Origin: Chitinophagaceae bacterium
Lineage (GTDB): Bacteria > Bacteroidota > Bacteroidia > Chitinophagales > Chitinophagaceae
NCBI GenBank assembly: GCA_044234005.1
Contig: JBIIJE010000025.1
Coordinates: forward strand, 1 to 26,740
Length of the DNA stretch: 26,740 nt
Reading direction: 5' to 3'
In this document: positions 151 to 25,915 of the stretch, piece after piece
How the letters are laid out: each line of letters begins with the position of its first letter
How positions within the stretch are numbered: the stretch's first letter is position 1
Position numbers and translations under genes: made by a program
Notes under the pieces: model-generated
Told to the model about the DNA's origin: nothing
Seen by the model: only the letters and a program-made list of their open reading frames with translations
The model's database searches: none

Positions 151-379
151 GTCAATTTTAAGTTGTTATTTTTTGGTCGGCACACGCACTTTTCGTTTCA
201 ATCTTTTCGCCATACCCTGAGGCTCGCTCGAAAAGGATTTTCACTGCAATTGCTGCCGCAATACACCTACCATTAGGCGACCTAATTTTACAGGTATTTT
301 TCTTTATTACAAAACCTAGGCTCGGCGTTCATTTTTCTGTTTTGAGGTTCTTAGATGTAACTTTATCAATGCCTTGTTT

Positions 380-5799: not shown

Positions 5800-6174
5800 A
5801 TGTCAGCTTTAAATAAACTTTCAAATATCATTGTAGATTTTGCAATAGAAGTTCATACACAGTTAGGGCAAGGCATGGCAAAATCGGCCTATCTAGCTTG
5901 TTTGGCATACGAGCTCGAAAAAGCAGGGTTTACAGTAGAGAAGGAAGTGAAAATGCCAATCAATTATAAAGGAGTAACAATAGAGAACGGCTATCAAGTA
6001 GATATTTTAGTGAACCATGAAATTATTTTAGAGATAAAGACTTTAAAAGCGATTACCGATTTGCATGTTGAACAAGTGCAAAGCTTTTTAACACTTGGGA
6101 ATTGTTCACTGGGGCTTATTTTCAACTTTAATGTACCTAGCTTGCGTAAAGGTATACGAAGAGTTGTTAAGTAG
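5800..6174 (+). CDS. GxxExxY-family protein (PD-(D/E)XK nuclease fold, PDDEXK_3-like)
   Basis: 124 aa with family-typical layout: helix ...GQGMAKSAYLACLAYELEKAGF..., then PINYKG, YQVDILV, ILEIKTLK and LGLIFNFN...KGIRRVV. The name-giving motif reads GMAKSAY, so Lys replaces the Glu. The D...E.K core is retained. Confidence 0.75.
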   Translation: MSALNKLSNIIVDFAIEVHTQLGQGMAKSAYLACLAYELEKAGFTVEKEVKMPINYKGVTIENGYQVDILVNHEIILEIKTLKAITDLHVEQVQSFLTLGNCSLGLIFNFNVPSLRKGIRRVVK

Positions 6175-8274: not shown

Positions 8275-9244
8275 ATGCCATTTCTTCTTATACGAGTCAA
8301 AAAAATCATTTTTTTATTTATTTTTTACTTTGCACTAATGTCATGATGGTACAATCCAGGTCAACTGGTTTGATACTTGATGATAATGCTTATGATAATA
8401 CAAATCAGTTAGCTACAGGGCTCAACGTTGCCCCTGTTGACTCAGTTGCTTCATTTAAAAAATATTGTCTTAAAGCAGGGGTGAAGGTAAGATTAGCTCT
8501 TGTGTAGGTTGGGCAACAGGGTATGCGGCATTAAGTATTTTGCTGGTGCTACAACATGAGCTGTCTAATAATCTTGCATCTCAATTGGCTCGTTCAAATA
8601 TGTTTATTTACAATTAAATTAAGGTAGATGATTGTATTTCGGGTTCGAGAATGAACAATTCGCTTGACTAACTTGGAACTCGAGGTAGTTGTGCTTACAA
8701 AGTTTTTTACACGAGTGATTGTAATATACTACCGAGTCCTGCTTTTAAAGATGCTGCGAATCCAATGGCGATAATAGCGCTTTACAAATAATTTGATAAA
8801 GAAGCCTCGAATCAAGAAAAGATAACTGCTACTATACGAAGCATAGCTTCAAATAAACCTGTAATACCATTTTGACATTAATTTTATATTATACATTTCG
8901 CTAGACGAAAATGGTAAATGCCTATGGATACAAATGTTTAGATTAAATGGAGGAACGAAATTTTAATCTGTTACATTTGTCTAATCGGTATAATTATTGG
9001 TATGCAAATAAAAACTTCTATGCAGGATTTGCGAAAAACAGGTTTATATAAGCCTAAGATGGATGCTGAAGATAGTGGTGGACATGCTATGTGCGTTGTT
9101 GGTTATGATCAACAAAAGCAGCTTTTTAAAATCACGAATTCGTGGGCGAGTGCATGGGGTAATGATGGCTTTATGTTTGTGTCTTTTGAAGATTGTGGAG
9201 CTGCTATAGCTTATGCACATCAAATTGTTATGGATCGAAATTGA
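8275..9244 (+). pseudogene. papain-family (C1-like) cysteine peptidase pseudogene with frameshifts, nonsense codons and a MITE insertion
   Basis: A signal-peptide-like segment (ATG 8275, ...KKIIFLFIFYFALMS) stops at TGA 8344-8346. A second frame (8343-8507) reads MMVQSRSTGLILDDNAYDN...FKKYCLKAG. A third frame from ~8480 reads GEGKISSCVGWATGYAALSI (catalytic-Cys region) and carries in-frame TAA codons at 8615, 8669 and 8789. The 126-bp insertion lies at 8865-8990. The same frame then resumes as GMQIKTS...GGHAMCVVGYD...ITNSWASAWGNDGFMFVSFED (catalytic His/Asn region, which is ORF 9002-9244). Confidence 0.8.
8865..8990 (+). mobile_element. 126-bp MITE-like non-autonomous element, copy 1 (inside the peptidase pseudogene)
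   Basis: 121/126 identical to 25368-25493. Terminal inverted repeats TACCATTTTGACA / TGTCTAATCGGTA. Flanked by direct TAA (8862-8864 and 8991-8993). It has no transposase-size ORF. Confidence 0.75.
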
Positions 9245-9474
9245 TCATGGGGATTGGCTGTACAATCTATTAATGAAGAGATACTAAAAATGTCAAAAGC
9301 TAGAATTTTGATTGGTGAGTTTGTGTTTAGAAAATATGATATAGATACCAACAATTTTCAAATTATTAAACCTGTTTAAGTGAGTTTATCAATATGTATT
9401 ATTATCACAGTGATGGTTCAACTTAGCCCTTCACAATAAATATTCCTTATCTTAGTTTTATCAAATTATAAAAT

Positions 9475-10158
9475 ATGTCAAACATACTCATGCTGCATGG
9501 TGCCTTAGCATCGCAAAAGCAATTCAACGAATTGATTCCACAGCTTACTCAACATACTTGTCATGCCTTAAATTTTAATGGACATGGTGGCAAAATGGTT
9601 TCAAGCAAAGGCTTTGGATTCGACTCTTTTACGGATGATATACTTCAATACCTTGATGAACATCATATTGAAACCATAAATTTATTTGGTTATAGTATGG
9701 GCGGTTATGCAGCACTTTTATTCGCTAGTAAATACCCCAATCGAGTCGAAAAAATATTTACTTTAAATGTTAAATTCAGATGGGATTTAGAAAGCACGGT
9801 CAAAGAAACTAATTTCTTGAACCCTGATAAAATGTTAGAAAAAGTGCCAGGCTTTGCGAATAATTTAATATTGCAACACGGTATGAATTTATGGAAAAAC
9901 ATGTTACACCAAACGAGCCAAATGATGCTCGATATGAGTGAAACAAACCTTCTCACTGATGAAAAAATTAAATTGATAACACATCCAAGCTTGCTCGCAG
10001 TAGGCGAACTGGATACAACAAGCAGTCTTGAAGAAACAATTGCGATGAAGAACAAACTTAAAGACGCTTCTTTACTCGTAATTCCAGCAACGCCTCATGC
10101 TTTCGAGAAAATATCAATAGAAAGATTAGTCTTTGAAATCAATAGTTTCCTGCGCTAA
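9475..10158 (+). CDS. alpha/beta-fold hydrolase (BioH/esterase-like)
   Basis: N-terminal LMLHGA, nucleophile elbow GYSMGG, a late Asp (GELD) and His (ATPHA). 227 aa. Substrate cannot be assigned. Confidence 0.8.
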   Translation: MSNILMLHGALASQKQFNELIPQLTQHTCHALNFNGHGGKMVSSKGFGFDSFTDDILQYLDEHHIETINLFGYSMGGYAALLFASKYPNRVEKIFTLNVKFRWDLESTVKETNFLNPDKMLEKVPGFANNLILQHGMNLWKNMLHQTSQMMLDMSETNLLTDEKIKLITHPSLLAVGELDTTSSLEETIAMKNKLKDASLLVIPATPHAFEKISIERLVFEINSFLR

Positions 10159-24140: not shown

Positions 24141-25232
24141 TTATTTTTTGTTTACATCACTGATGCTGTGTATGTCCATTAGTAATTTGGGATCTCGACC
24201 GTTTAATACTTTAGAAATAGTTTCTTCAGGTATTACTTGTTTTACTTTGTGTCCTTGCGAAATTACTGAGTGTCGATTCACTTTCATCGGGCCTTCAATG
24301 ATCCAGTCTTGTGTTTCTTTTTTATCGAATCGGCAAGTGTTGCATATCCAACCAGGTTTACCATCTTTTGTATTATCAGCTACTTCACCCCATTCGTCTT
24401 TTCGAGCTGTAACTCGTAAAACATCATCTCCACGATACCACAATGTTACTTCTCCACAGCAATTTTTACAATCGCGATGCGCTAAAACAGGTTTAGTAAA
24501 CCATACACGATTTTTAAATCGGAATGTTTTATCAGTTAATGCACCTACAGGACATACATCTATCATATTGCCACTGAAATCATTATCGATGGCTTTAGAA
24601 ATAAGCGTGGAAATTTCTGCATGGTCACCTCTTTCGAGTATACCATGATTACGCGAATTAGTCAATTGGTCTGCCACATATGTACAGCGATAGCATAAAA
24701 TACATCGCGTCATATGCAATTGTATATAGGGTCCAATATCTTCTTTCTCAAAGGTACGTCTGTCAAATTCGTAGCGAGTTCCTTCTTTGCCGTGCTCATA
24801 ACCCAAATCTTGTAAATGACACTCGCCGGCTTGGTCGCAAACAGGGCAATCTAAAGGATGATTTAATAATAGCATTTCAACTACACCTGCTCTAGCTTCT
24901 TTTACTTTATCGCTCGTGATATTCTTCACAATCATGCCATCCATTACGCCAGTTCGGCAACTAGCTTGCAATTTGGGCATGGGTCGGGGATCTTTAGCAG
25001 AACCTGCAGCTACTTCTACCAAACATGTTCGGCATTTACCACCGCTACCTTCTAATTTGCTGTAATAGCACATAGCGGGGGGTGTTACATCACCGCCTAT
25101 CATACGCGCGGCTTGTAATACAGTGGTTCCAGGGGGAACTTCAATAGTTATGTTATCAATAGTAACTGATAAATTAGGATTAACGACTACTTCGCTCATA
25201 TTGGCAAAAGTAGCATCAAAATCTAAATTCAT
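24141..25232 (-). CDS. nuoG: NADH-quinone oxidoreductase subunit G, short Bacteroidota form (2Fe-2S and 4Fe-4S domains, no molybdopterin-like domain)
   Basis: N1b 2Fe-2S cysteines (CYY...GKCRTCLVEV...SC), N5 HPLDCPVCDQAGEC and N4 CILCYRC...CPVGAL. A Cys-rich C-terminal segment follows (CKNCCGE, CNTC). 363 aa. Confidence 0.88.
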   Translation of the reverse strand: MNLDFDATFANMSEVVVNPNLSVTIDNITIEVPPGTTVLQAARMIGGDVTPPAMCYYSKLEGSGGKCRTCLVEVAAGSAKDPRPMPKLQASCRTGVMDGMIVKNITSDKVKEARAGVVEMLLLNHPLDCPVCDQAGECHLQDLGYEHGKEGTRYEFDRRTFEKEDIGPYIQLHMTRCILCYRCTYVADQLTNSRNHGILERGDHAEISTLISKAIDNDFSGNMIDVCPVGALTDKTFRFKNRVWFTKPVLAHRDCKNCCGEVTLWYRGDDVLRVTARKDEWGEVADNTKDGKPGWICNTCRFDKKETQDWIIEGPMKVNRHSVISQGHKVKQVIPEETISKVLNGRDPKLLMDIHSISDVNKK

Positions 25233-25367
25233 GGGATTAAATTCGGATAGATATTCTAAATTAGAGATTGGTTAAGCCTAGCGTGGCAGATTAGGGAAAG
25301 CGGTTTTATACTTAAGTTAGATACTGCTTAGCACTTTATGTTCATGCTAGACTTATTAAAGTACTTA

Positions 25368-25493
25368 TGCCATTTTGACATTAATTTTATATTATACATT
25401 TCGCTCGACGAAAATGGTAAATGCCTATGAATACAAATGTTTAGATTAAATGGAGGAACGATATTTTAATCTATTACATTTGTCTAATCGGTA
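25368..25493 (+). mobile_element. 126-bp MITE-like element, copy 2 (intergenic)
   Basis: Same length and orientation as 8865-8990, with 5 mismatches. Flanked by direct TTA (25365-25367 and 25494-25496). Confidence 0.75.
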
Positions 25494-25667
25494 TTATTAT
25501 TCTGGTTTATTTTTCTTATTTCCACGCTACATGAAGAGATGATTCGTTGTTTTAACCTAGATTTTGAATGATAATCTGTTAAGCTACCTTATTATGGTCA
25601 ATAAACAAAGATGACATGAAAATCACACCTATTTTTTTCAACGCATTGTAGCAAGTAAAAGTTTTAA

Positions 25668-25700
25668 TGTAATACCGATTGGAATTTTGTAATACCGATT
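25668..25700. repeat. two direct copies of TGTAATACCGATT spaced 20 bp apart, resembling the MITE terminus
   Basis: TGTAATACCGATT occurs at 25668-25680 and 25688-25700. TAA+TACCGATT equals the reverse complement of the MITE 3' terminus (AATCGGTA+TTA) and resembles the copy-1 5' junction TGTAA|TACCATT. Confidence 0.5.
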
Positions 25701-25802
25701 GTTATTGCAGTAAACTCCCTTCGTTATAAACATCCATATCATCGGCACAGGCAGCCTAATTATTCGTATCTCAAATTGTTCTTAACAAAATAACCATCGG
25801 CG

Positions 25803-25830
25803 TTTATCGCGATAAATTTATCGCGATAAG
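25803..25830. repeat. tandem pair of 14-bp palindromes TTTATCGCGATAAA / TTTATCGCGATAAG (candidate operator or cruciform)
   Basis: Read directly from the sequence. 25803-25816 is a perfect 14-bp palindrome, and the adjacent 25817-25830 repeats it with one terminal change. The CGCG core is conspicuous in AT-rich DNA. Confidence 0.55.
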
Positions 25831-25915
25831 ACTTGGTCTGCGACACAAATTACATGGGAATAAGATACGGCCTGAGATTTGAGGTAGATAAAAATAATAA
25901 TTATAATCCGTAAAG

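Follow-up and report, generated by a model that had tools for sequence, protein, structure and literature searches.

The Correia elements of Neisseria and the RUP elements of Streptococcus pneumoniae are TA-duplicating MITEs (transposable elements of the miniature inverted-repeat kind) linked to IS630/Tc1-mariner-like enzymes, and the Rickettsia palindromic elements (RPEs) are translated as part of functional proteins. The termini of Tourist elements are of the GGCC or GGG type. Tourist-like MITEs, such as mPing, are small, AT-rich, non-coding, and multi-copy; they carry short terminal inverted repeats, are moved in trans, and have a 3-bp TTA/TAA (TWA, W being A or T) target duplication (PMC2836001, PMC2213677). 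PIF/Harbinger-Tourist elements are recognized by this strict T-W-A duplication (PMC2213677, PMC2836001), and the prokaryotic IS5 family includes relatives of their transposases (PMC12730594, PMC4482050). In bacteria, the IS5-derived MITEs BrickBuilt, MITEPgRS/MITE464, and MITE239/MITE700 of Porphyromonas gingivalis and ATR (ISNme1) of Neisseria were assigned to their partners by their termini (PMC4596501). Here, we describe a 126-bp sequence, designated family A, which occurs twice in a 26.7-kb stretch of DNA from a Chitinophagaceae bacterium (contig JBIIJE010000025.1). The window refers to this whole stretch, and coordinates are window positions unless another contig is named.

The 126-bp sequence is very probably a previously uncatalogued non-coding MITE family with imperfect terminal inverted repeats, which inserts at TWA, duplicates this target, and is moved in trans. 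It is 126 bp long and non-coding, ends in terminal inverted repeats, is bracketed by a duplication specific to each copy, occurs as dispersed copies with unrelated flanks, and has empty sites with a single target. Like the Tourist-like MITEs, it is a small, AT-rich, multi-copy element with short inverted ends and a 3-bp TWA duplication. However, the Tourist-like MITEs are eukaryotic, have no sequence similarity to family A, and have an identified partner, the PIF/Harbinger transposase; their termini also differ from the TACC of family A. The Correia and RUP elements resemble family A in being bacterial, in their length of ~100-150 bp, in their inverted ends, and in their location in or beside genes, whereas they duplicate a 2-bp TA and family A, judging from its empty sites, a 3-bp TWA. 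Copy 1 of family A resembles the RPEs, as it is palindromic, of similar size, and inserted in a protein-coding gene without shifting the frame, but no frame of family A is free of stops, and the gene that received copy 1 is a pseudogene. The IS5-derived bacterial MITEs are similarly non-coding, mostly intergenic, nested in other repeats, and present in tens of copies (PMC4596501), and P. gingivalis belongs to Bacteroidota, as does the host of family A. In contrast, resident ISPg elements share the termini of those MITEs (GAGACC... or ACGTCA...), whose target duplications vary or are not clear (PMC4596501), whereas family A has TACC... ends, a strict TWA, and no resident insertion sequence (IS) with the same ends in the ~286 kb of host-like contigs.

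The two window copies, their flanks, and the gene next to copy 2 are as follows.

8862-8864, plus strand: left target-site duplication TAA of copy 1; the triplet recurs at 8991-8993.
8865-8990, plus strand: family A copy 1, 126 bp, TACC...CGGTA, inside the Peptidase_C1 pseudogene; bounds from the 24-copy alignment.
8991-8993, plus strand: right target-site duplication TAA of copy 1, read from the sequence.
25365-25367, plus strand: left target-site duplication TTA of copy 2.
25368-25493, plus strand: family A copy 2, 126 bp, intergenic, upstream of the Fer2/NADH-G-like gene and 136 nt from its start.
25494-25496, plus strand: right target-site duplication TTA of copy 2.
24141-25232, minus strand: Fer2/NADH-G-like gene.

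Both copies lie in the same orientation and are identical at 121 of 126 positions, with differences at element positions 2, 39, 63, 95, and 106. Their ends, TACCATTTTGACA and TGTCTAATCGGTA, form short and imperfect terminal inverted repeats, complementary at 10 of 13 positions. The initial annotation had reported this identity and orientation, which held to the base, and its inverted repeats and its TAA/TAA and TTA/TTA flanks were also recovered. The repeat finder returned a 135-nt ungapped match at 96% (8864-8998 versus 25367-25501), outside which the flanking sequences are unrelated. Since the runner-up direct repeat in the window was merely 50 nt at 72%, the 126-bp repeat is far beyond chance. 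The element has stop codons in all six frames and must be moved in trans because it encodes nothing; the transposase is presumably encoded elsewhere in the genome. None occurs among the window genes, in agreement with the initial annotation.

Metagenomic copies were retrieved with the exact right-end 18-mer ACATTTGTCTAATCGGTA. Neither the 185,579 species-representative genomes nor the viral contigs contained an exact match to the 18-mer, and it matched 26 stretches of JGI metagenome contigs, most of them from assembly Ga0315903 and on separate contigs. The G+C content of the matching contigs was 33-38%, like that of the window. BLASTN yielded 22 full-length copies, each at its own locus and with 91-98% identity to copy 1, as well as three partial copies. 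Overall, more than 25 family A copies were found in unrelated contexts. The mean pairwise identity was 92% (range 85-98%), and each copy was ~4% from the consensus. One further copy belongs to the window's own species:

Contig L128, 519-644: family A copy with TAA/TCA flanks, ~9 kb upstream of the window, directly after a terminator-like hairpin.

A lone right end in contig L023 had no transposase beside it. Short-read Logan contigs of the window locus start or break inside the element, as expected of a dispersed repeat. Additionally, in contig L019 (2834-3298; sample Ga0209562, 39% G+C), ACATTTGTCTAATCGGTA forms the end of one of the two to three units, ~195-205 nt each, of a diverged tandem array, on a nearly ORF-free (open reading frame-free) 3.3-kb contig that is otherwise unrelated to family A. 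This 18-mer may have matched by chance, or it may be distantly related to the terminus.

The element boundaries were determined from an alignment of 24 full-length copies, comprising the two window copies and the 22 metagenomic ones. Homology starts and stops exactly between TWA and TACC on the left and between CGGTA and TWA on the right. The flank pairs were distributed as follows.

TAA/TAA: 10 of 24 copies.
TTA/TTA: 8 of 24 copies.
TTA/TAA: 3 of 24 copies.
Other single-base mismatch: 3 of 24 copies.

The triplets were thus perfect in 18 copies and one base off in the remaining six, and a divergence of ~4-5% across six bases predicts about this 25% mismatch rate. The centre bases of the left and right triplets were associated (Fisher p = 0.001). 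At 19 of the 24 restored sites, no open frame of at least 80 codons runs across the site, which indicates that the copies are mostly intergenic.

Two empty sites bear on the length of the duplication, one at the protein level and one within a second repeat family of the window, designated family B, which lies beside copy 2.

25670-25672, plus strand: left TAA duplication flanking family B.
25673-25860, minus strand: MITE family B, 188 bp, termini TACCGATTGGAATTTTG ... CAAATTACATGGGAA, found by terminus scan.
25861-25863, plus strand: right TAA duplication flanking family B.

The first empty site is that of the interrupted peptidase gene. Its only detectable homologue, P0001, is intact and 36% identical, and no peptidase homologue was found in the syntenic loci of 80 related genomes. 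P0001 does not have the 43-residue insert, and after removal of 8865-8993 the window product aligns with it ungapped across the junction (SIASNKPVIIGMQIKT versus SLAQNKPVVIGMEIRN), with NKPVIIGMQI in the excised window product and NKPVVIGMEI in P0001. The 129 bp are therefore absent as coding sequence from the sole intact homologue. The alternative excisions fit P0001 less well: removing 135 nt loses two residues, and removing 126 nt adds one. The second empty site is paralogous. In contigs L025 and L029, family A lies inside family B, where it is preceded by ...ttattttgTTA and followed by TTAagaacaatttgag..., with the right junction bases TTAagaacaa. The window copy of family B is uninterrupted at this position and has a single TTA, ttattttgTTAagaacaatttgag (ttattttgTTAagaacaa).

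Judging from these two independent empty sites, the duplication is fixed at 3 bp. A 2-bp (AT) or zero-bp duplication is excluded, since neither reproduces the empty family B sequence. Three other element definitions were rejected. A 135-nt element without duplication would include extra bases that other copies do not share and would lose two residues against P0001, and a 2-bp AT duplication with ACC...GGT ends is contradicted by the empty family B copy. An IS630/Tc1-mariner-derived, TA-duplicating MITE was discarded because filled and empty sites require 3 bp; the 2-bp reading predicts three extra bases in the empty family B copy and an extra peptidase residue, and neither was observed. The expectation that uninserted sites would be found was thus borne out at the paralogous and protein levels but not at an orthologous site. 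The position of family A within family B is identical in L025 (3151-3276) and L029 (727-852), and the outer flanks differ; either a composite unit of B carrying A moved whole or the TTA in B is an insertion hot spot.

Family B has homologues in L025, L029, L013, L009, and L031. Since its copies are only 70-87% identical and often truncated, family B is older than family A. One of its ends carries the subterminal direct repeat CAATCGGTATTACA twice, and the other end, in reverse complement, reads TTCCCATGTAATTTG, or TACCCATGTGATTTG in other copies. The word AATCGGTAT occurs five times in the window against 0.2 expected, which the subterminal direct repeat of family B explains. Families A and B have in common the TACC...GGTA ends, the TWA flanks, and an internal AAATGCC(T/G)ATGG segment, for which the simplest reading is that one transposase probably moves both.

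Several further observations concern individual copies of family B. A 116-bp chimera in L031 (8078-8193) consists of the left 60 nt of B and the right 74 nt of A, joined at AAATGCC(T/G)ATGG and flanked by mismatched triplets (TAA versus TTA); recombination or a deletion probably produced it. The window copy contains a perfect 26-nt palindrome, TTATCGCGATAAATTTATCGCGATAA, at 25804-25829, where other B copies are ~14 nt shorter, and this looks like a local palindromic duplication or insertion. In L125 (9394-9566), from a ~98% identical strain, the match of the B copy covers only positions 1-173 of the 188, and the intergenic region is shorter by 21 nt, which is consistent with the loss of one of the two CAATCGGTATTACA repeats. 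A degenerate family B fragment lies just outside the window in the same species (L127, 2416-2487). A third family A copy at 25670-25694 was considered and rejected, as its local alignment was no better than background and the site is the family B terminus.

The TWA insertion and duplication point to a DDE cut-and-paste transposase with 3-nt staggered cuts. In the proposed mechanism, such a transposase, supplied in trans, would bind the TACC-proximal ends and perhaps the subterminal repeats, and would excise or copy the element. It would then make 3-nt staggered cuts at the TWA target, the element ends would be joined, and gap repair would yield the TWA duplication. Family A looks old rather than recently active, since its insertions are fixed across the sampled population and its copies have diverged from the consensus.

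Some results weigh against the interpretation as a mobile MITE family or against parts of it. Because the metagenomic copies were retrieved with an exact right-end 18-mer, ascertainment makes the right end look more conserved than it is. The divergence of ~4% does not indicate very recent activity, and the terminal inverted repeats of family A are imperfect as well as short (10/13). An orthologous empty site was not found among the conspecific contigs from ENA, JGI, and Logan (L001-L006 and L113-L130); all of those spanning the sites, 98-99% identical, carry copies 1 and 2. The next relatives, at only 60-74% protein identity, have neither the peptidase nor the element. Neither the window nor ~286 kb of host-like contigs yielded an autonomous element, a longer one with the same termini and a transposase. 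An all-against-all megablast among the loci gave no repeat longer than 180 bp besides A and B, and fuzzy terminus scans of the ~286 kb gave no IS-sized pair of A-like or B-like termini. The pair scan covered TWA-flanked TACC...GGTA pairs 150-4000 bp apart, and the candidate pairs that were inspected lay within ordinary large genes. IS5-family elements generally have Ga/Gg ends, which TACC does not resemble. The TACC with which the A and B termini begin is also unlike the GAGACC or ACGTCA at the start of the termini of the P. gingivalis IS5 elements and their MITEs (PMC4596501).

The last two points bear on the identity of the partner. On the evidence of the duplication, the likeliest partner would be an IS5-superfamily/PIF-Harbinger-like transposase, which we propose tentatively and put at slightly below an even chance. 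The initial annotation had given the IS5 superfamily as a hint; the 3-bp TWA duplication fits it, but the TACC ends are unlike the IS5 termini compared and no partner was found. The alternative that family A is a MITE whose partner is not IS5/PIF-Harbinger-like, so that A and B are moved by another DDE family able to produce 3-bp duplications (such as IS30, IS3, or IS982) or by an uncatalogued one, is a serious possibility, though still somewhat short of an even chance. It draws on the TACC ends, which do not match the GAGACC type of P. gingivalis (PMC4596501), and on the fact that the duplication is the only tie to IS5, with no partner found. The TWA duplication itself speaks for the IS5 side in two ways. 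The IS1031 group of IS5 duplicates TNA according to the ISfinder tables, which TWA also fits, whereas the duplications of IS30 and IS3 are not limited to TWA. Moreover, a strict T-W-A is what characterizes the PIF/Harbinger-Tourist elements (PMC2213677, PMC2836001).

A more specific proposal takes A and B as marks of a bacterial transposase lineage not yet catalogued, which could be a true counterpart of PIF/Harbinger-Tourist with atypical ends and TWA specificity, active in a freshwater Chitinophagaceae lineage with a small genome and without a sequenced representative. The ends common to A and B, the strict TWA, the subterminal repeats, and the finding of no such-ended IS in the collections searched lead to this proposal, which we consider unlikely.

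The right end of family A also harbors a possible promoter motif. The sequence TACATTTG (element positions 108-115; 8972-8979 in copy 1 and 25475-25482 in copy 2) matches perfectly the motif TAnnTTTG, which we take to be the Bacteroidetes -7 promoter box. Situated 12 nt in from the right end, it is directed outward, in copy 1 toward the hydrolase gene at 9475. A -33 TTG was not found at the usual spacing from TACATTTG. A sigma-70 promoter in the left end (TTGACA) was rejected, as no -10 hexamer was seen by eye at 16-18 nt spacing. If A and B do mark an uncatalogued lineage, a weaker addition to that proposal is that the outward box could make the copies portable promoters.

It is very unlikely that the repeat is instead a selectively kept structured non-coding RNA gene, cis-regulatory RNA, or promoter module, with function rather than mobility accounting for its copies. 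The outward TAnnTTTG box would suit a promoter module, and some P. gingivalis MITEs carry promoters (PMC4596501). Additionally, both strands fold better than shuffles (z from -2.2 to -2.6), with two hairpins, but such modest z values and hairpins are expected from inverted repeats. No Rfam family matched the element up to E = 1 in the comparison that was run, and the RNAalifold covariation term was 0; among 27 pairs across 24 sequences, there was a single compensatory cell. The element has inserted into a coding sequence and into another repeat and has duplicated its target there, which is how a transposable element behaves. A secondary promoter effect may exist and would not replace the MITE explanation.

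Even less probable is an IS200/IS605-type palindrome-associated or other non-duplicating element, in which TWA would be the target motif plus the element end. The subterminal hairpins and weak terminal inverted repeats are compatible with such an element. However, IS200/IS605 elements make no target duplication and insert 3' of a fixed tetra- or pentanucleotide, whereas family A shows one TWA at empty sites and two at filled ones, and the centre bases of its left and right triplets co-vary.

The two remaining explanations have almost no probability left. In one, a segmental duplication or gene conversion copied 126-135 bp between the two window loci without transposition; the 135-nt ungapped match, in which the copies share eight more right-side bases (TWATTATT, the duplication plus TTATT), would favor it, but homology ends at TWA in 24 of 24 copies and passes it in none, the TTATT occurs in none of the 22 other copies and is a coincidence, and the more than 25 copies in unrelated contexts each have their own TAA or TTA pair. 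In the other, copy 1 is an RPE-like in-frame insert translated within a functional protein, as its length with the duplication (129 bp, 43 codons) keeps the downstream frame, but all six frames have stops (the peptidase frame reads IPF*H*FYIIHFA*...), the host gene has three more stops in all strains examined, and most copies are intergenic.

The gene interrupted by copy 1 is the following.

8275-9379, plus strand: papain-family Peptidase_C1 pseudogene (PF00112, E = 1.9e-12 on the reconstructed product).

This gene had encoded a secreted papain-family peptidase and is now a decaying pseudogene. Once 8865-8993, comprising the element and one TAA, is removed, ...NKPV continues directly into IIGMQ... 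in the frame that the Peptidase_C1 fragments use. The initial annotation had concluded that excision restores the ORF; local frame continuity is restored, but a whole ORF is not, due to multiple lesions in the gene. Likewise, the insertion is in-frame as claimed, since 126 + 3 = 129 bp is 43 codons, but this is functionally meaningless because of the stops in all six frames. Besides the element, the gene carries three in-frame TAA stops, and the window strain has in addition two 1-nt deletions causing frameshifts at about 8316 and 8477 and an extra stop at 9242-9244. The conspecific strain of contig L113 (~98% identity; 8799-9905) also carries the element and these three TAA stops, without the two frameshifts and the last stop, and its longer frame fixes the gene ends as MPFLL...IIKSV*. 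From this comparison, the element and the three stops are the older lesions, since both strains share them and the frameshifts and last stop are found only in the window strain, and the gene is still decaying. Copy 1 may have knocked out the peptidase gene or may have landed after a nonsense mutation; either order fits.

The host belongs to an uncultured freshwater lineage of Chitinophagaceae-like Bacteroidota without a sequenced close relative. The window has a G+C content of 36% and contains ordinary Bacteroidota housekeeping genes. In exact-protein look-ups, its locus was recovered from many lake-type metagenome assemblies (ENA, JGI, and Logan) at 98-99% DNA identity. The closest GTDB species representatives are metagenome-assembled genomes of Chitinophagaceae and other Bacteroidota, with only 64-74% amino-acid identity in a conserved protein, and for the hydrolase flanking the pseudogene a cluster at 99% is followed by a next closest match at 64%; the lack of a sequenced close relative was concluded from these values. 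One RNA feature supports the Bacteroidota origin of the window and was the sole Rfam match in it above its gathering score:

178-261, minus strand: Flavo-1 RNA (RF01705), 43.9 bits against a gathering score of 42, full-length match.

Other variable segments were observed in this lineage. Small genes of the PD-(D/E)XK nuclease superfamily (PF13366) occur at 5800-6174 in the window and at 2964-3263 in L125, the latter in a strain-specific insertion near glnS of another strain; they look like a multi-copy, variably present family. An adh_short and MerR gene pair between rplL and the GTPase gene is present or absent depending on the strain.

Family A had no match in Rfam, plasmids, phages, viral contigs, or the 185,579 representative genomes, and these searches are consistent with the earlier view that it is not a named family. 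It is new as a family, but it is an ordinary kind of genomic parasite, a textbook MITE. The finding matters mostly for the annotation and population genomics of this uncultured freshwater Bacteroidota lineage. The insertion of copy 1 explains why the peptidase gene is split, and the two MITEs explain the length of the 972-nt intergenic region between glnS and the Fer2 gene, of which copy 2 and family B occupy one third. The element also explains the fixed breakpoints in short-read assemblies of the host. Furthermore, it adds a cleanly bounded bacterial MITE family with a Tourist-like TWA duplication, and the nested families provide an internal control of filled and empty sites. If the partner transposase is unusual, families A and B would give its binding sites directly; if it is not, the catalogue of bacterial MITEs gains a routine entry with family A.

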